The notes beneath the pieces were generated by a model. That model did not search any database. It worked only from the letters and a program-made list of their open reading frames with translations, and was not told the origin of the DNA. Both the position numbers and the translations under genes were made by a program. Below are positions 2,377 through 35,657 of a stretch of 64,000 nt of DNA, piece by piece. This stretch comes from Escherichia phage vB_EcoM-G28, in sequence record NC_054916.1; one strand, 5' to 3'. Each line of letters begins with the position of its first letter. Positions within the stretch are counted from its first letter, which is position 1.

Positions 2377-3795
2377 TTATGGATAGGTATAGATGATACC
2401 AGTTTCTAAAGCAGTTTTATGAATGATGTATCCATTACGCGATTCTTGAACATCAACTTCCGGATAGTCTTTCATCATCTTCTGAAGGGTGTAACGATGC
2501 AGGTAATATTTACTATCTGGATCGTCAGTTTTCCAATCTTTACCTTCTTCAGTCATTTTTTGGATTTCATCCATAACCCACCAACCGCACCAGATGTAAG
2601 CTGAAGTACGGTGTGGAAGAGGATGAACATAAGGCAATTCACCTTCTGGTTCCGGAGCAACTTTATCAGTCACTTGAACTTGACCTGTTGTTTTAACTGT
2701 TTTGCTATCATAATCAGTTGCTGCAACGACAGCAGTAACTTCAATAGTTTGACTTCCAACAGATGAGGTATCGACAGTATATACGTTAGTTGACCCTTCT
2801 ACAGGAGAAGAATCTTTCTTCCACGAGTAAGTAATTTGTGCTTCTTCTGGAGCATCCGTAACATTAGCAGTAAATGTAGCCGAAGCATCTTGCTGAACGT
2901 TAATAGAAGGAGGAGTCAATGTAACCTGTGGATTCATTGTCTTCTTATTAACTGTCAATGATACTTCATTAGAAGTAACTTCCTTTTCATTGTAATTTTC
3001 TGCTGTTACTTGGGCTACGCATTTAATTCTTTTTACTCCACTTGTAGTTGGAGTATAGCTAAATGTAGAGCTAGTTTCTCCACCAACTTGTGAATCATCT
3101 ACATACCACTGATACGTAGCAGATGCTCCATCAGGTTGAGAAGCTAAGGCAGCAGTAAATTGAACTGGGGTTCCAATTACTCCAGCTGAAGGACTAGCAG
3201 GAGTTACTGCCAATGTAGTTGTCTGTGTCTTTTTATTAACAGTCAGTGATACTTCATTAGAAGTAACGGTTTTTTCATCATAATTTGTCGCGGTTACTTG
3301 AGCTACACACTTGATTTTTTTAACTCCGCTTGCGGCAGGAGTGTAATTGAATGTAGCAGAAGTCGCTTCGTCTACAGGAGAACTGTCAACGTACCATTGA
3401 TACGTAGCAGATGCACCTGATGGCTGCGAAGCTAAAGCAGCGGTAAATTTAACAGCTGTTCCAATTACTCCTGCTGGAGGACTATTGGGAGTTACGGCTA
3501 AGGTAGTCGTCTGAGTTTTGTTTTTGACTGTGATAGTTGTAGTAGCTTCTGCTGTTTCAGCATCAGTATCTGGAACTGTGTTTGTTGCAACTACTTTAAT
3601 AGTCTTTTGACCGGCAGGTCCTTTTAGTACATAACTAAAAGTTGCTTCAGCTCCATCCTGTGGAACATCGTCTACAGTCCAAGCATAGGTAATAGTTCCA
3701 CCTCCAGTTTCACCACTGGGTGTAGCAGTAAACTGCTGAGTCTGATCTATAACTCCAGTAGGTGTTTTAGGAGTTATATCAACTGTAAAAGCCAT
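2377..3795 (-). CDS. hoc: Highly immunogenic outer capsid protein Hoc, 472 aa with four Ig-like domains
   Basis: Repeated ~96-aa Ig-like modules, conserved C-terminal capsid-binding region (WCGWWVMDEIQK...), synteny. Confidence 0.9.
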   Translation of the reverse strand: MAFTVDITPKTPTGVIDQTQQFTATPSGETGGGTITYAWTVDDVPQDGAEATFSYVLKGPAGQKTIKVVATNTVPDTDAETAEATTTITVKNKTQTTTLAVTPNSPPAGVIGTAVKFTAALASQPSGASATYQWYVDSSPVDEATSATFNYTPAASGVKKIKCVAQVTATNYDEKTVTSNEVSLTVNKKTQTTTLAVTPASPSAGVIGTPVQFTAALASQPDGASATYQWYVDDSQVGGETSSTFSYTPTTSGVKRIKCVAQVTAENYNEKEVTSNEVSLTVNKKTMNPQVTLTPPSINVQQDASATFTANVTDAPEEAQITYSWKKDSSPVEGSTNVYTVDTSSVGSQTIEVTAVVAATDYDSKTVKTTGQVQVTDKVAPEPEGELPYVHPLPHRTSAYIWCGWWVMDEIQKMTEEGKDWKTDDPDSKYYLHRYTLQKMMKDYPEVDVQESRNGYIIHKTALETGIIYTYP

Positions 3796-3804
3796 AAGTT
3801 ATCC

Positions 3805-4485
3805 TTATTTTAATGTTACGAAAGAAGAATTGCGTGTTTCACGAATTAAAACTGATCCGTCGCGATTAATGTAATAAATTAAGCTAAACAAAGTTTGGTG
3901 TGCTGACGCGTGTTCAAAACTAGTTGGATGAGATTTCCAATCAGGAGTTTCAGCGATCCATTGATAAATCCACCAAGGAACCGTACAGAATCCTGGATTT
4001 TTCCCCAATAATTGAAGATTCGGACTAAAGTTTTCCGGAAGAGTAAATACAGACGGCTTTTCAGATTCAATAATCTCAGCTACAGCTTGTTCAAACTTTT
4101 CTTCAACAAAAGGAGTGTCTTCAATCAAAACATCGGTATTTTCAGGAATTTTATCCGTTTCGACTACTTCAATTTTAATATCAGATTTAACCGGAGAATC
4201 AATCAGAAGTGCTGCTTCTGGATTAACTTCTTCATCGTCATATTTTAATCCCTCTGCAGCATCAGCAGCATTGATTAAGTCTTTAATAGATAACCCATCA
4301 GTCTCTGGCATAGGTTCACTAGCGAGCTTCTGGAGGGCTTCTTCAATATCAACAACGATATTATCAAAAGATTTATTCTTTTTGACCTTTATACCAAACT
4401 GTTCAGCGTATTCAGCTAATTTAGCTTTAGCTTCTTTATTATCATCAAGAGCCTTCAACTCTGCAATATAATCTTTATCTATCAT
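3805..4485 (-). CDS. inh: Inhibitor of prohead protease (Inh)
   Basis: 226 aa acidic protein at the T4 inh position between hoc and segE. Confidence 0.7.
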   Translation of the reverse strand: MIDKDYIAELKALDDNKEAKAKLAEYAEQFGIKVKKNKSFDNIVVDIEEALQKLASEPMPETDGLSIKDLINAADAAEGLKYDDEEVNPEAALLIDSPVKSDIKIEVVETDKIPENTDVLIEDTPFVEEKFEQAVAEIIESEKPSVFTLPENFSPNLQLLGKNPGFCTVPWWIYQWIAETPDWKSHPTSFEHASAHQTLFSLIYYINRDGSVLIRETRNSSFVTLK

Positions 4486-4498
4486 AATATTTCCTCAG

Positions 4499-4506
4499 TA
4501 TAAATA
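4499..4506 (+). promoter_or_regulatory. T4 late promoter element TATAAATA upstream of segE
   Basis: Exact TATAAATA about 29 nt upstream of the segE ATG. Confidence 0.45.
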
Positions 4507-4534: not shown

Positions 4535-5152
4535 ATGTACCACTTTGTATATGAAACAACAAATCTAATAAATGGTAAAAAGTATATAGGAAAACACTCT
4601 ACTGATGACTTGAATGATGGTTACCTTGGTTCCGGTAAGGCAATTCAGCAGGCTATAAAGAAATATGGTGAAAACAATTTTTCTAGAACAATACTAAAAG
4701 AGTTTAAAACTTCCGAAGAAGCGTACATGTATGAAGAAGAAATTATAACTCCTGAAATAATAAAAAGCAAAAATTATTATAATATGAAACCTGGTGGAAT
4801 TGGTGGAATTGTTATGACTACAGAGGTTATAGCAAAGATGAAAGAATCTTCCGCTAAGAGATTTGAAAACTCACCGGGCACGGTATTAGGTACAACTTGT
4901 TACACTAATGGAACTAAAAATATTTTTATTAAACCTGGAGAACTTGTTCCAGAAGGATTTGTAAAAGGGATGGTTCATCCTAATAGAAAGTCCAGAAAAG
5001 GATGTAAAGTCAAACCGACTACCACAGGAACTTTTTGGGTCAATAATGGTGCAATAAATAAATTAATACAACCAGACGGTATTATTCCCGACGGATTTAT
5101 TAAAGGTCGTCTCATGAAAAGAGATTCTAAAGGCAAATTTAGTAAGGCATAA
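4535..5152 (+). CDS. segE: GIY-YIG homing endonuclease SegE
   Basis: 205 aa; N-terminal GIY-YIG-type motif HFVYETTNLINGKKYIGK; position between inh and uvsW. Confidence 0.8.
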   Translation: MYHFVYETTNLINGKKYIGKHSTDDLNDGYLGSGKAIQQAIKKYGENNFSRTILKEFKTSEEAYMYEEEIITPEIIKSKNYYNMKPGGIGGIVMTTEVIAKMKESSAKRFENSPGTVLGTTCYTNGTKNIFIKPGELVPEGFVKGMVHPNRKSRKGCKVKPTTTGTFWVNNGAINKLIQPDGIIPDGFIKGRLMKRDSKGKFSKA

Positions 5153-5154
5153 TT

Positions 5155-6663
5155 ATGGATATTAAAGTACATTTTCACGACTTCAGTCATGTACGCATCG
5201 ATTGTGAAGAGAGCACGTTCCACGAATTAAGAGATTTCTTTTCGTTTGAGGCCGATGGATATAGATTTAACCCTCGCTTCAGATATGGCAACTGGGATGG
5301 ACGAATCCGTCTTTTAGATTATAATCGTCTTCTTCCATTCGGCTTAGTCGGGCAAATTAAAAAGTTCTGTGATAACTTTGGCTATAAAGCCTGGATTGAC
5401 CCACAAATTAACGAAAAAGAAGAATTATCAAGAAAAGATTTTGATGAATGGCTTTCTAAATTAGAAATCTATTCAGGAAATAAAAGAATTGAACCACACT
5501 GGTATCAAAAAGATGCAGTGTTCGAAGGATTAGTTAATCGTCGTAGAATTCTTAATCTTCCAACATCTGCAGGTAAATCTTTAATTCAGGCTCTGCTTGC
5601 GCGATATTATTTGGAAAATTATGAAGGTAAAATTCTTATCATTGTTCCAACAACTGCTCTGACAACTCAGATGGCTGATGACTTTGTTGATTATCGTTTA
5701 TTCAGTCACGCAATGATAAAGAAAATTGGTGGCGGAGCATCAAAAGATGATAAATATAAAAATGATGCACCAGTCGTTGTTGGTACATGGCAAACTGTAG
5801 TAAAACAACCAAAAGAATGGTTCTCACAGTTTGGAATGATGATGAATGATGAATGCCATCTTGCTACAGGAAAAAGTATTTCATCTATCATATCAGGTTT
5901 AAATAACTGCATGTTCAAATTTGGTCTATCTGGTTCATTACGTGACGGCAAAGCCAATATCATGCAGTATGTTGGAATGTTTGGCGAAATATTTAAGCCA
6001 GTAACGACTTCTAAGTTAATGGAAGATGGGCAAGTAACTGAGCTAAAAATTAATAGTATTTTTCTTCGTTATCCTGATGAGTTCACTACTAAATTAAAGG
6101 GAAAAACTTACCAAGAAGAAATAAAAATTATTACTGGGCTCAGTAAAAGAAATAAATGGATAGCTAAATTAGCTATTAAGCTTGCGCAAAAAGATGAAAA
6201 CGCTTTTGTCATGTTTAAACATGTATCACATGGTAAAGCTATTTTCGATTTAATTAAAAATGAATACGATAAAGTTTATTACGTATCAGGGGAAGTTGAT
6301 ACCGAAACCCGCAATATAATGAAAACCTTAGCTGAAAATGGCAAAGGAATAATTATAGTAGCTAGTTATGGTGTATTTTCTACTGGTATTTCAGTTAAAA
6401 ATCTGCATCACGTTGTTTTAGCGCACGGTGTTAAATCAAAAATCATTGTATTACAAACAATCGGTCGTGTATTACGTAAGCATGGTTCTAAGACAATAGC
6501 AACAGTCTGGGATCTTATAGATGACGCGGGCGTAGTTTCTAAATCAAAAACATCTTCTAAAAAATACTCGCATTTAAACTATCTTTTAAAACATGGACTT
6601 GATCGTATTCAGCGTTATGCTGATGAAAAGTTTAATTATGTGATGAAAGAGGTTAAACTTTGA
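5155..6663 (+). CDS. uvsW: UvsW DNA/RNA helicase
   Basis: 502 aa; SF2 helicase motifs (PTSAGKS Walker A, DECH box); synteny. Confidence 0.92.
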   Translation: MDIKVHFHDFSHVRIDCEESTFHELRDFFSFEADGYRFNPRFRYGNWDGRIRLLDYNRLLPFGLVGQIKKFCDNFGYKAWIDPQINEKEELSRKDFDEWLSKLEIYSGNKRIEPHWYQKDAVFEGLVNRRRILNLPTSAGKSLIQALLARYYLENYEGKILIIVPTTALTTQMADDFVDYRLFSHAMIKKIGGGASKDDKYKNDAPVVVGTWQTVVKQPKEWFSQFGMMMNDECHLATGKSISSIISGLNNCMFKFGLSGSLRDGKANIMQYVGMFGEIFKPVTTSKLMEDGQVTELKINSIFLRYPDEFTTKLKGKTYQEEIKIITGLSKRNKWIAKLAIKLAQKDENAFVMFKHVSHGKAIFDLIKNEYDKVYYVSGEVDTETRNIMKTLAENGKGIIIVASYGVFSTGISVKNLHHVVLAHGVKSKIIVLQTIGRVLRKHGSKTIATVWDLIDDAGVVSKSKTSSKKYSHLNYLLKHGLDRIQRYADEKFNYVMKEVKL

Positions 6664-7352
6664 ATTATAAATTAATATATGATAATTTAATTAATAGAGC
6701 CCAGAATCGGGCTCGCCTTAATGGATACACTGAAACACATCATATAATTCCTAGATGTATGGGTGGTACAAATGATAAGTGTAATTTAGTAGAACTAACG
6801 GCTGAAGAACATTTTATAGCCCATAAACTTTTAGCTAAAATTCATCCAAACCATTACGGTATAATTAAAGCTGTTATATGTATGGGGATGAATTCAAATA
6901 CTCATGAAAGACACGTCAATAAATCTTACGCATGGGAACGTCGTAAAATGGCAGAACTTCAATCCGGCGAAGGTAATCCATTTTACGGAAAACACCATAC
7001 GGAAGAACATAAACAATATATGTCAAAACTCATGAAAAGTCGTCCAATTACATGGGGAAATAAAATTAGTAAAACTAAAAGAATGAACCCAACGAAATGG
7101 ACTGAAGAAGCTAAAAGATTACATTCAATCAATCAATCGGGTAAAAATAACGGCATGTATGGAAGGAAACATTCCGCTAAATCTATTCAGAAAATTAAAG
7201 ATAACATGCCAGATAATTCAGGAGCTAATAACCCAGCTGCTAAACCTATAGAAGTAAATGGTGTTAAGTATAAATGTATGAAAGATGCTTCTAAAGCTAC
7301 TGGATTATCAATGTACAAACTAAGAATACTTAGAAAAACAGTTAATTTATAA
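6660..7352 (+). CDS. Free-standing HNH homing endonuclease (mob-like), apparent TTG start overlapping the uvsW stop
   Basis: HNH motif HHIIPRCMGG...NLVELTAEEHFIAH; repeated NUMOD-like GxxHxxExK segments; N-terminus paralogous to the nrdA-nrdB HNH ORF. Confidence 0.75.
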   Translation: MNYKLIYDNLINRAQNRARLNGYTETHHIIPRCMGGTNDKCNLVELTAEEHFIAHKLLAKIHPNHYGIIKAVICMGMNSNTHERHVNKSYAWERRKMAELQSGEGNPFYGKHHTEEHKQYMSKLMKSRPITWGNKISKTKRMNPTKWTEEAKRLHSINQSGKNNGMYGRKHSAKSIQKIKDNMPDNSGANNPAAKPIEVNGVKYKCMKDASKATGLSMYKLRILRKTVNL

Positions 7353-7377
7353 GGGCTTCGGCCCTTTGGAGAAAAAG

Positions 7378-7611
7378 ATGTTACTAGAATTTAAACAATT
7401 TCTTTATGAAGCTTCTATTGATGAATTTATGGGTAAAATTGCCTCTTGTCAAACATTAGAAGGTTTAGAAGAACTTGAAGCTTATTATAAGAAAAGAGTC
7501 AAAGAAACTGAATTAAAAGACACTGATGACATCTCTGTGAGAGATGCTTTGGCAGGAAAAAGAGCTGAATTAGAAGATTCAGACGATGATGAAGTAGAAG
7601 AAAGCTTTTAA
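7378..7611 (+). CDS. UvsW.1-like small acidic protein (76 aa from ATG at 7378)
   Basis: ORF with GGAG Shine-Dalgarno 7 nt upstream; position downstream of uvsW. Confidence 0.6.
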   Translation: MLLEFKQFLYEASIDEFMGKIASCQTLEGLEELEAYYKKRVKETELKDTDDISVRDALAGKRAELEDSDDDEVEESF

Positions 7612-7666
7612 ATTAAAAAAGGCCCAACCGAAAAGGAAGGGCCAAAACTATAGACTAAAGGTCACA

Positions 7667-7834
7667 CTATAGCAAAAGTTGTGTTTCATTTAATTGTTCT
7701 TCCGAACTTTCTGAAACTGGTAGTTCTTTAATGTAATTATAGCAAGGCCCAGGATGTACAGGACCTTTGTCTGTTTCAACAACCAATGCAGAATCGATTG
7801 GAGTTTTACAGACAACACAAATCTTATCTGACAT
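7667..7834 (-). CDS. Small protein with CxxC...C motif (uvsY.-2 position), 55 aa
   Basis: Hand-translated ORF below the 60-aa cutoff of the ORF track; preceded by late promoter element. Confidence 0.45.
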   Translation of the reverse strand: MSDKICVVCKTPIDSALVVETDKGPVHPGPCYNYIKELPVSESSEEQLNETQLLL

Positions 7835-33747: not shown

Positions 33748-34926
33748 TTAAAAATATTTTTTAAAACTCATCATAACTTTATCATCAACATCATTATCAA
33801 TCTGTGCAACAAGGTAAGATGACAGTTCTACTTCTTGTGGCGCGGATTGAACATTATCAGAATTAAGATATTCACGAATCCAAGGATATGGATGTTTAAC
33901 CGGAGCATCGGTAATTGGGCATGGAAGACCGCACTGTTTCATACGAGATACAGTTAAGTAATCAATAAAGCTCCACATGCTATTTGTATTTAATCCAGGA
34001 ACATCGCCATCTTTAAATAAATGAACTGCCCAATCTTTTTCTTGGCGGTTAACTTCCATGAAAATATCAACTGCTTCTTGTTCACACTCTTGAGCAATTT
34101 TAACCCATTCATCGCCATCAGTACCGGATTGAAGTTGACGAATAATATATTGGGTGCCTTTAAGGTGAAGCTGCTCATCACGTGCAATGAACTTCATAAT
34201 CTTGGCATTACCTTCCATGATTTCCATGTTCTTATGGAAGTTAAAGGTACATGCAAAAGATACATAAAAACGAATAGCTTCTAAGGCATTAATAACGTGC
34301 AAACAGAGGTAAAGAGATTTCATTAGTGCTCGTTTAGCTTCGGCTTCTTGTTTAATAGCTCGATTTAAACGAAAAACAGCATCAGGAGATTCTTTAGCTA
34401 GTTCTGTAAATTCTTTAGCGTTTTCCCATTCACGGGTTTTAGTCAGAACATCATCATAATAACGTCCAATTGATTCAGCACGTTTCATGATAGCTTCATC
34501 TAATACAATCTCATCAAATACCTTTGACGGATCAGTATAAAGATTTCGCATGATATGTGTATATGAACGACTATGAATAGTTTCACTAAAAGTCCATGTA
34601 GCAACCCATGTATCAAGACTTGGGTCTGAAATTAATGACATAAGTACAGCAGATGGCGCACGACCCTGAATGCTATCTAGAAGTGATTGATACTTCAGAT
34701 TATTAGTAAAAATATCTTGCTGATATTGAGGAAGCTTGTTAAATTGTGCAGCATCCATCATTAAGTTTACTTCTTCAGGACGCCAGAAAAATGACAACTG
34801 CTTTTCGGTTAAATCTTCAAAAACTTTATGACGTTGAATATCATAACGCGCAATACCAAGACCTGAACCGAAGAACATAGGTTCTTTTAAAACATCAACT
34901 GGATTTGTATTAAAAACTGTAGACAT
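33748..34926 (-). CDS. nrdB: Ribonucleotide reductase small subunit, uninterrupted
   Basis: 392 aa from MSTVFNT; AGAGGA SD; diiron-centre motifs; no intron. Confidence 0.92.
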   Translation of the reverse strand: MSTVFNTNPVDVLKEPMFFGSGLGIARYDIQRHKVFEDLTEKQLSFFWRPEEVNLMMDAAQFNKLPQYQQDIFTNNLKYQSLLDSIQGRAPSAVLMSLISDPSLDTWVATWTFSETIHSRSYTHIMRNLYTDPSKVFDEIVLDEAIMKRAESIGRYYDDVLTKTREWENAKEFTELAKESPDAVFRLNRAIKQEAEAKRALMKSLYLCLHVINALEAIRFYVSFACTFNFHKNMEIMEGNAKIMKFIARDEQLHLKGTQYIIRQLQSGTDGDEWVKIAQECEQEAVDIFMEVNRQEKDWAVHLFKDGDVPGLNTNSMWSFIDYLTVSRMKQCGLPCPITDAPVKHPYPWIREYLNSDNVQSAPQEVELSSYLVAQIDNDVDDKVMMSFKKYF

Positions 34927-35657
34927 TAATTTTTCCTCTTTAAAATTCTGCCGCGTTTCCAACCTGGCGGTATAATATCATCTTTACCTATAAGCGTGCA
35001 TTCACTTCCATTATTAATCCATTTCTTACCGCGGATTCCTTTATAATCTCTTGGTTGTATTTTGTCAAACTTTGCATCAAGTTGATATGCCCAACGAAAT
35101 CCATAGGCATATTGAAATTTACCCTCAGCACAATATTTGATATTTGACCCGTTTCCATTAACTGATCTGGACGCTGCCGCAATAGAGTGAAAGGTTTCTA
35201 TGAAATCCCCATCTAATGAGAATTTATGTATTTCGATAGATGGGCATGCATACCTATTCACGTTTGATACATGTTGTTTAGTTTCGTTTTTATGATGCTT
35301 GCCTAACATTCCTCTAGGATGAGGATTATTTTTCCAATATTTCTTAAAGAAATCAGAATTAGCTTTAGCAAATAATTTTCTGTGCAAGCTATACAATCTG
35401 TTATTAATTCTATTACCAGCTTTATCTGTTGCCATTAACGTTAACGCAGAGGCAAGACCAAAATGGCCTTCATTTATCTTGCATAGTAATAGATGCGCTA
35501 TAAAATGTTCTCTAGCTGTTAATTCAACTAAATTTTCTTTATCATCAGAACCTCCCATGCATTTAGGGACTATATGATGTGTCTCTTTATATTCGGATAA
35601 AGGTTCCCGAGCCTGAGCTCGGGAAATTAGATCATTATAGATTTTTTGATAATTCAT
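34926..35657 (-). CDS. mobE: Free-standing HNH homing endonuclease between nrdA and nrdB (mobE-like)
   Basis: 243 aa; HNH motif HHIVPKCMGG...NLVELTAREHFIAH; stop overlaps nrdB start (TAATG). Confidence 0.75.
   Translation of the reverse strand: MNYQKIYNDLISRAQAREPLSEYKETHHIVPKCMGGSDDKENLVELTAREHFIAHLLLCKINEGHFGLASALTLMATDKAGNRINNRLYSLHRKLFAKANSDFFKKYWKNNPHPRGMLGKHHKNETKQHVSNVNRYACPSIEIHKFSLDGDFIETFHSIAAASRSVNGNGSNIKYCAEGKFQYAYGFRWAYQLDAKFDKIQPRDYKGIRGKKWINNGSECTLIGKDDIIPPGWKRGRILKRKN

Follow-up and report, generated by a model that had tools for sequence, protein, structure and literature searches.

The uvsW 3' end and its HNH gene

We analysed a window of 64,000 nucleotides (nt) from Escherichia phage vB_EcoM-G28 (sequence record NC_054916.1), and we describe here an open reading frame (ORF) at the 3' end of the uvsW helicase gene that encodes a putative homing endonuclease of the HNH type. 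The features of this region, between positions 4499 and 7611, all lie on the + strand. The uvsW gene (5155..6663; 502 amino acids (aa); UvsW_N, E 8e-44) ends in a tail, KEVKL*, that is not the tail of T4 uvsW. It is followed by the HNH ORF (6660..7352; 230 aa; TTG start), recognised by ORF, Pfam, PHROG and homologue evidence, and by uvsW.1 (7378..7611; 77 aa; UvsW-1 domain, E 5e-29), which has its own GGAG Shine–Dalgarno sequence at 7368-7371. The TTG codon (6660-6662) shares bases with the uvsW stop codon TGA (6661-6663; CTTTGA at 6658-6663), so that the ORF coordinates bear out the 230-aa frame with an overlapping start that a first-pass annotation of this DNA, made from its letters, had claimed. 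As an in-frame TAA (6654-6656) lies just 5' of the TTG and the next ATG is codon 34, past the catalytic HH, the TTG is the only canonical start that retains the HNH motif. The same TAA shuts the HNH frame directly before the TTG, which rules out a UvsW–HNH fusion through a -1 frameshift. In the homologues of phages Roth77 and Rgz1, an ATG stands at the base homologous to the window TTG. The existence of homologues at E 1e-96 and better rules out a chance ORF. Another 230-aa ORF with a TTG start (72-764), considered as an HNH paralogue, was rejected, as it corresponds to the 3' portion of gene 24 and has 20% identity and no motif.

The HNH motif quoted in the first-pass annotation was found at residues 27-36 (HHIIPRCMGG) and 42-55 (NLVELTAEEHFIAH) of the protein. 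Together, family alignments and a profile match delimit the catalytic motif (HH...N...EH...H) to codons 27-55 (6738..6824). Residues H28, N42, E50, H51 and H55 are invariant in family alignments of 44 and 54 sequences, and H27 is also present in the window protein. Moreover, positions 23-58 of a profile built from 44 homologues match the HNH domain of EcoKMcrA (E 4.4e-4), the profile also matches that of a group II maturase (E 0.006), and PHROG 655, 'homing endonuclease', matches residues 1-217 of the window protein (E 3.9e-60). The AlphaFold models (pLDDT 87.9 for the whole protein and 91.2 for residues 1-90) place a helix at 3-16, strands at 25-28 and 43-46 and a helix at 48-61, an order that fits a beta-beta-alpha metal finger. 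Searches with the predicted fold gave matches without significance, HNH domains and the I-TevI domain being among the weak ones, and the isolated N-terminal domain retrieved helical noise only. We therefore based the HNH assignment on the sequence profiles and on motif conservation, and did not use fold matching for it. By its conserved H...N...H motif, the protein would belong in the HNH (His-Me finger) superfamily.

The repeated NUMOD-like segments noticed in the first-pass annotation correspond to Pfam NUMOD3, which matches two stretches of the protein (E 7.6e-14; 51.8 bits, the cut-off being 20.4). The better of the two lies at 6939..7025 (residues 94-122). The other, NUMOD3-like, lies together with a C-terminal I-TevI-like DNA-binding domain at 7128..7313 (residues ~157-218), as judged by phmmer, profile and Foldseek comparisons. 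The Pfam model I-TevI_DNA-bd itself matches weakly and below its cut-off (E 0.029). With the DNA-binding domain of I-TevI (1i3j), the single window sequence gave E 0.006 in phmmer, and the C-terminal part of the 44-homologue profile gave E 4.8e-6; the Foldseek probability for an I-TevI-like C-terminus was 0.96. The presence of NUMOD3 and the homology to 1i3j point to a modular DNA-binding region of the I-TevI type at the C-terminus.

Within the window, the HNH ORF has its closest paralogue at the mobE position, where an ORF lies between nrdA and nrdB (34926..35657, - strand; 243 aa). The two proteins are 46% identical over the first 134 aa (BLASTP, E 4e-34), with 41 identities in the first 60 residues, and have unrelated C-terminal parts, in agreement with what had been noticed at first sight. 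The start of the mobE-position ORF overlaps the nrdA stop (TAATGA), and the ORF carries near 35604-35625 the hairpin UUCCCGAGC-ucag-GCUCGGGAA, described as the mobE internal terminator. By its sequence, the HNH gene is best placed with the Mob-type free-standing HNH homing endonucleases of T4. A stretch of 62 nt (6729-6790) that encodes the HNH core (THHIIPRCMGG...NLVEL) is 92-93.5% identical to T4 mobB DNA, far above the identity in the rest of the gene, which suggests either gene conversion among Mob paralogues or a very strong constraint.

DNA of the HNH gene, at 96-100% identity, occurs in 47 of the ~498 Tequatrovirus-type records that have the uvsW/uvsW.1 region, and always at this site. 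The carriers include T6, PST, ACG-C40, HY03 and UFV-AREG1. The first-pass annotation, which took the gene for an additional free-standing HNH homing endonuclease insertion, knew of no gene at this place in T4, proposed a protein search and a comparison of the junction among relatives as checks, and named presence in all close relatives, T4 included, as what would refute it, which is not what the records show. T4 lacks the gene at the junction, the reference record and resequenced T4 being in agreement; the T2 junction is empty as well, and T2 lacks segE, too. Both the match to PHROG 655 and this insertion polymorphism support the reading as an inserted homing endonuclease gene. The gene is already in the databases, since T6, PST and many others annotate a homing endonuclease. 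It is labelled variously as 'homing endonuclease', 'mobD', 'mobile endonuclease E', 'group I intron endonuclease' or 'hypothetical', and the UFV-AREG1 genome paper lists UvsW as coding sequences 184 and 186 and does not mention coding sequence 185.

The uvsW/uvsW.1 junction also holds a homologue in at least four T4-like lineages besides this one: in Klebsiella/Salmonella Jiaodavirus (Roth77, Roth16, PSE-D1; 69% identity to the window protein), where 13 of ~144 Jiaodavirus-type records are occupied, in Escherichia phage PSD2002 (59%), in MT446411 (57%) and in Morganella phage Rgz1 (55%). Each has a 4-nt start/stop overlap with uvsW, which is ATGA in Roth77 and Rgz1, and TTGA in the window, PSD2002 and MT446411. 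A strong purine-rich Shine–Dalgarno sequence precedes the start in the three TTG lineages and not in the two ATG lineages. Thus, the HNH gene is a free-standing ORF between conserved genes, patchy among close relatives at one locus, as is typical of Mob-type genes.

On its other side, uvsW is adjoined by segE (4535..5152), at the position of T4 segE, which encodes a homing endonuclease of the GIY-YIG family (Pfam SegE_GIY-YIG, E 3e-9). The G28 uvsW is therefore flanked by two unrelated homing endonuclease genes, segE upstream and the HNH gene at its 3' end. segE is polymorphic as well (absent from T2, RB68, W143, BF15, Killian and RPN226; present in T4, T6, PST and EC121), and the presence of the HNH gene is independent of that of segE.

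Anatomy of the insertion and its flanks

In an alignment of 8 carriers and 8 empty sites (A2), and by span differences, the insertion relative to T4-type genomes comprises 689 bp (6649..7337), with a 3-nt (AAA) ambiguity of its boundaries. The insertion point lies 15 nt before the ancestral uvsW end, among the five final codons. The sequence of empty sites is ...GTA ATG AAA ACA GTT AAT TTA TAA GGGCTTCGGCCC..., and carriers read ...GTG ATG AAA / GAG GTT AAA CTT TGA ATT ... CTT AGA AAA / ACA GTT AAT TTA TAA GGGCTTCGGCCC. The first 15 nt of the element (6649..6663; GAG GTT AAA CTT TGA, EVKL*) thus form a replacement tail for uvsW, which also holds a GAGG Shine–Dalgarno sequence (6649-6652) 7 nt before the TTG. 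The resident tail ACA GTT AAT TTA TAA (TVNL*), identical to the T4-type uvsW end, is found at 7338..7352, where it now provides the last 4 codons and the stop codon of the HNH ORF. UvsW stays full length in the carriers, with EVKL* substituting for TVNL*. As the HNH frame has no stop codon of its own and enters the original uvsW tail, neither the hairpin further downstream nor the ribosome-binding site of uvsW.1 is affected. The earlier placement of the insertion between uvsW and uvsW.1 was right as to the junction, but alignment A2 puts the insertion within the uvsW 3' end and not in the spacer.

The hairpin in question, the tetraloop GGGC-UUCG-GCCC (GGGCTTCGGCCC, 7353..7364), stands directly 3' of the HNH stop and before the uvsW.1 ribosome-binding site. 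Alignment A2 shows it undamaged at 7 of its 8 empty sites; at the eighth, that of the reference T4 record, the sequence is AAGCTTCGGCCC, which is a known sequencing error. Since the hairpin is present at every sampled empty site except in this error-affected record, it is not DNA of the element; the first-pass annotation had correctly seen it after the HNH ORF, but it is resident and was not brought by the insertion. At positions 4180-4195 of the segment retrieved from the reference T4 genome (NC_000866) the sequence is AATTTAATAAGCTTCGGCCC, as against AATTTATAAGGGCTTCGGCCC in resequenced T4 and all relatives, and the known error joins uvsW and uvsW.1 into one 587-aa ORF. In the window, GGGCTTCGGCCC occurs six times (at 2359, 7353, 24371, 54021, 62810 and 63039; five exact copies and one with one mismatch; 0.01 expected), just outside ORF ends where checked. 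Tuerk et al. (1988) are said to have described stable C(UUCG)G tetraloop hairpins in the intercistronic regions of T4, and the six copies look like these. In phage IME339, uvsW.1 contains a 60-bp in-frame tandem duplication (TTGTCAAACATTAGAAGG...AAAGA), with a 96-aa product (1913-2203 of its segment).

The occupied sites of other lineages are built in a similar way. At an empty Jiaodavirus site (Mineola), uvsW and uvsW.1 overlap at ATGA, and the occupied site has ATGA at both ends; the Jiaodavirus HNH ORF ends with ...AAC CTA TGA, like the resident AAT CTA TGA. In PSD2002, the upstream uvsW tail is MKEVQI* with GAGG and TTG, and the HNH ORF ends with the uvsW-tail-like ...MKQVDL*.

Two other origins of this arrangement were rejected. 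The uvsW/uvsW.1 split is present in RB69, RB49, RB43, 44RR, Aeh1 and T4 (PMC1524935); being that ancient, and being found at every empty site examined, it was not made by the endonuclease as a case of genes in pieces. An intron-encoded endonuclease is ruled out as well: in 6300-7700, Rfam gave no match to a group I or II intron model, even with E values up to 1 allowed; the stop codon of uvsW is a normal one; and uvsW and uvsW.1 are separate genes in every T4-like phage looked at (PMC1524935).

The DNA to the left of the insertion differs between carriers and non-carriers in a way that is restricted to the end of uvsW. In Tequatrovirus, where 8 carriers were compared with 7 non-carriers, we counted 8 fixed differences, which lie in the final 73 bp of the shared uvsW sequence (block B, 6576..6648), at 6576, 6597, 6615, 6618, 6621, 6630, 6639 and 6642, all in synonymous third-codon positions. 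There were none in the 521 bp further left, where 49 sites are polymorphic, and none in the 363 bp to the right. Block B is a putative altered half-target and co-conversion tract. An import of block B from another genus was not supported, as the block is Tequatrovirus-like overall, with scattered silent changes. Left of it lies a divergent uvsW block (block A, 6521..6575), which reads DAGVVSKSKTSSKKYSH in the window, whereas most empty-site phages have CGVKPKSANTKKKYVH and T4 has AGVKPKSANTKKKYVH. Block A is identical in 8/8 sampled carriers and also, with 0 differences over 55 bp, in the HNH-less phages OES_C-2 and LH2. These two combine the carrier-type block A with an empty-type block B, and look like simple recombinants with a crossover between the blocks. 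The likeness among carriers does not extend beyond blocks A and B; over the 521 far-left sites, the haplotype of the window has 26 differences from the carrier W143 and 2 from the HNH-less ECO4. When the joined flanks were used as a query, all 47 carriers scored above every non-carrier.

The same pattern was found independently in the Jiaodavirus sample: its 30 fixed differences all fall within the final 160 bp of uvsW, and the 395 bp upstream, where carriers and non-carriers have haplotypes in common, contain none. In Tequatrovirus and Jiaodavirus alike, carrier alleles depart from empty ones in the same three codons (AAA to AAG, TAC to TAT, and GTA to GTG or GTT). Moreover, the empty alleles of Tequatrovirus (T4-type) and of Jiaodavirus have GATGAAAAATTTAAYTACGTAATGAAAAC in common, which makes this sequence a candidate for the left part of the endonuclease target. 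The population data point to co-conversion of flank markers and to target-site differences tied to the element.

The distribution and the flanks also bear on the possibility that the HNH gene is an old resident of T4-like phages, deleted in most lineages, so that the empty sites would be deletions. Long vertical residence could explain homologues with 55-69% protein identity at the same junction in at least five lineages, and the duplicated uvsW tail provides short repeats able to mediate deletion. Nevertheless, the empty sites are clean, and are conserved not only inside each genus but also from one genus to another, with GATGAAAAATTTAAYTACGTAATGAAAAC in the T4-type and Jiaodavirus empties alike, the carriers do not cluster by their local flanking background, and the gene belongs to a family with the known mobile Mob genes. 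We thus consider wholesale deletion quite unlikely as an account of the empty sites, although it does not exclude homing, as the usual life cycle of homing endonucleases involves both gain and loss.

Expression and proposed homing

The only exact + strand match to the T4 late-promoter consensus between 4400 and 7800 is TATAAATA at 4499..4506, upstream of segE. As the sole exact match up to uvsW.1, it is the likely source of a late segE–uvsW–HNH–uvsW.1 transcript. A promoter of the HNH ORF itself was not found: no exact late-promoter consensus adjoins the ORF, and sigma-70-like matches were not above those in shuffled sequences. Two near-consensus late-promoter octamers lie within the ORF, TATAAATT (6667-6674) just past the TTG and TATAAATG (7279-7286) 92 nt upstream of the uvsW.1 start. 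The latter could be an embedded uvsW.1 promoter that favours retention of the element, or could arise by chance in AT-rich DNA. From the 4-nt overlap (ATGA or TTGA in five lineages) and the lack of an adjoining late-promoter match, we infer, as is reasonable, that translation of the HNH gene is coupled to that of uvsW.

Two RNA hairpins were predicted around the HNH start. In one of them (AAAGUUUAAUU / GGUUAAACUUU, 6627..6661; -8.7 kcal/mol, z -2.95), part of the Shine–Dalgarno sequence is base-paired, as is the TT of the TTG; this hairpin does not form at empty sites, including that of T4. Because it lies within uvsW coding sequence, translation of uvsW would open it. The other, GAGCCC-agaauc-GGGCUC (6697..6714), is GC-rich and begins 37 nt past the HNH start, where T4 mobE has its internal terminator (PMC2790892). 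A hairpin of 6-9 bp is formed at the same codons (~11-19) in Roth77, PSD2002, MT446411, Rgz1 and the mobE-position gene, with differing stem sequences and encoded amino acids. The stems of PSD2002 and MT446411 differ by one double change from A-U to G-C and by two wobble-compatible single changes. The mobE hairpin was shown experimentally to be a weak intrinsic terminator (PMC2790892). The hairpin at 6697-6714 need not terminate transcription, as no U-tract follows it. The case for this internal hairpin is more persuasive than that for the occluding one at 6627-6661, which as a conserved regulator is partly supported and was given little weight.

We propose that the element acts as follows. 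The HNH gene, probably promoterless, would be part of the uvsW transcript that starts from the late promoter at 4499. Ribosomes that finish uvsW would translate the HNH gene at a low rate, with the weak TTG start, possibly the occluding hairpin, and the conserved internal hairpin holding its expression down. In a mixed infection, the HNH protein would bind the uninterrupted uvsW 3' end of an element-free phage, probably around GATGAAAAATTTAAYTACGTAATGAAAAC, and would nick or cut there, like MobE in nrdB. Recombinational repair would then copy the cassette and ~70-160 bp of its left flank into the recipient. The carrier genomes themselves would be protected, because the insertion splits the target site and the left half has silent substitutions.

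The reading that we favour is thus that a 689-bp cassette within the last five codons of uvsW carries the gene of a free-standing Mob-type HNH homing endonuclease and homes into empty uvsW 3' ends. We give it a probability of roughly three in four; the nuclease activity and the target site are predicted from sequence comparison. Several observations weigh against this reading. The Pfam HNH model scores the window protein below its cut-off (E 0.012; 16.2 versus 21.4 bits). The counts of fixed differences come from 15 sampled genomes in Tequatrovirus and 8 in Jiaodavirus, and not from all records, and the flank haplotype could reflect mere linkage to an old polymorphism instead of immunity or co-conversion. 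In the BF15 copy, a 4-bp deletion (ATCA, in a ATCAATCAATC run; at ~2300-2310 of its segment, which corresponds to 7152-7155 of the window) cuts the ORF to 195 codons. RPN226 has lost the occluding hairpin, other genera, including that of Roth77, form it weakly, and the internal hairpin is followed by a poor U-tract. Finally, a full-text literature search found no paper that describes the HNH gene or tests its cleavage, nicking, homing or coupling.

As the frameshifted BF15 copy demonstrates, decay of the HNH gene does occur, and one may ask whether the gene is a dead or dying relic, an endonuclease that no longer homes and whose ORF persists because the insertion is harmless and precise loss is rare. 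The TTG start, suggestive of very low expression, the truncated BF15 copy and a frequency of only ~9% in two genera would fit a relic, and T4 I-TevIII provides an example of a defunct endonuclease that persists (PMC2790892). However, in the 8 sampled copies of the HNH ORF, 24 synonymous and 6 non-synonymous polymorphisms were found (pN/pS ~0.06), which argues for purifying selection, and 7 of these copies are intact with all catalytic residues. Moreover, the cassette occurs on unrelated local backgrounds in two genera, which requires recent movement or recombination. A relic is therefore unlikely.

Strong purifying selection, together with the conserved position beside a recombination helicase, could as well be a sign of domestication, the nuclease benefiting the phage, by excluding or degrading co-infecting relatives or by working with UvsW in recombination, and not being primarily selfish. 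Phage homing endonucleases can bring such benefits, and SegB is reported to aid immune evasion by T6 (PMC13096335). Still, 90% of the close relatives do without the HNH gene, its position is its only link to UvsW function, and marker exclusion itself follows from homing, which leaves domestication as a very unlikely explanation.

Beyond homing as such, the element may be a purpose-built cassette that swaps the tail of uvsW and has been kept long-term at one homing site in at least five T4-like genera. The tail-swap architecture itself is observed, and the function and selection of each of its pieces are putative. The element would live inside the uvsW 3' end by bringing a recoded replacement tail that serves also as ribosome-binding site and start codon, by borrowing the original final codons and stop of the host gene, and by keeping a structurally conserved attenuator hairpin ~35 nt into the ORF, whose stem has compensatory changes in six lineages. 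A recognition site of ~26 bp would then be marked by the silent changes that occur in parallel (AAA to AAG, TAC to TAT, GTA to GTN). We put this forward tentatively, and would not offer even odds on it.

For the biology of T-even phages, these results add one more uncharacterised homing endonuclease, present in T6 and not in T4 or T2, which in crosses of T6 with T4 or T2 should make the uvsW 3' end a local hotspot of marker exclusion. For the homing endonuclease field, they provide a clean natural case of a free-standing gene set inside the end of a conserved gene without damage to it, a predicted target sequence common to two genera, and added evidence for the 5' internal hairpin of the mobE type as a family-wide feature. 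The general picture of phage homing endonucleases is unchanged, and the details are of moderate specialist interest: the HNH gene is an uncharacterised member of a well-known family, an ordinary element that is neatly built. Elsewhere in the window, the ORF at the hoc position (2377-3795, - strand) encodes 472 aa, versus 376 aa for T4 hoc (1131 nt), and may contain an extra domain repeat.

Comparison with known systems

T4 mobE is promoterless, is co-transcribed with nrdA, carries an internal terminator hairpin, and its product nicks T2 nrdB (Wilson & Edgell 2009, PMC2790892); its start overlaps the nrdA stop (PMC2988022). Compared through the mobE-position ORF of the window, MobE and the protein of the uvsW element have homologous N-terminal HNH domains. 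Both genes are free-standing, lack a promoter match of their own and are sporadically distributed; in both, the start codon overlaps the stop codon of the upstream conserved gene, and a GC-rich hairpin lies ~30-37 nt into the ORF. Unlike MobE, the protein of the uvsW element has a C-terminal DNA-binding region composed of two NUMOD3 motifs and an I-TevI-like helix-turn-helix, and its different insertion site, the uvsW 3' end, implies a different target. The ORF of the uvsW element starts with TTG and that of mobE with ATG; the former borrows the last codons and stop of its host gene and supplies a replacement tail, and its hairpin lacks a U-tract; the activity of its product is predicted from sequence.

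SegE of T4 has its target in uvsW (Table 1, PMC2988022). Like the HNH gene, segE encodes a free-standing homing endonuclease tied to uvsW, is present in the window and is polymorphic among relatives, but it belongs to the unrelated GIY-YIG catalytic family, lies at the opposite end of uvsW, and is present or absent independently of the HNH gene.

With I-TevI, the endonuclease of the T4 td intron (1i3j/1t2t), the likeness is confined to the C-terminus, where 60-80 residues of the window protein align with the DNA-binding domain, which implies extended, modular DNA binding. In contrast to the uvsW element, I-TevI has a GIY-YIG catalytic domain and is encoded by an intron; no intron is detectable at the uvsW 3' end.

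The cassette of T4 mobA and the gene 60 bypass element reportedly reshapes the end of its host gene and protects the carrier from cleavage (Bonocora et al., PNAS 2011). In both cases, a Mob-type gene travels with extra sequence that reshapes the end of a host gene. The mobA cassette is said to split its gene (39/60) and to need translational bypassing, whereas uvsW stays whole, the extra sequence being a 15-nt tail, and the uvsW/uvsW.1 split predates the element (PMC1524935).

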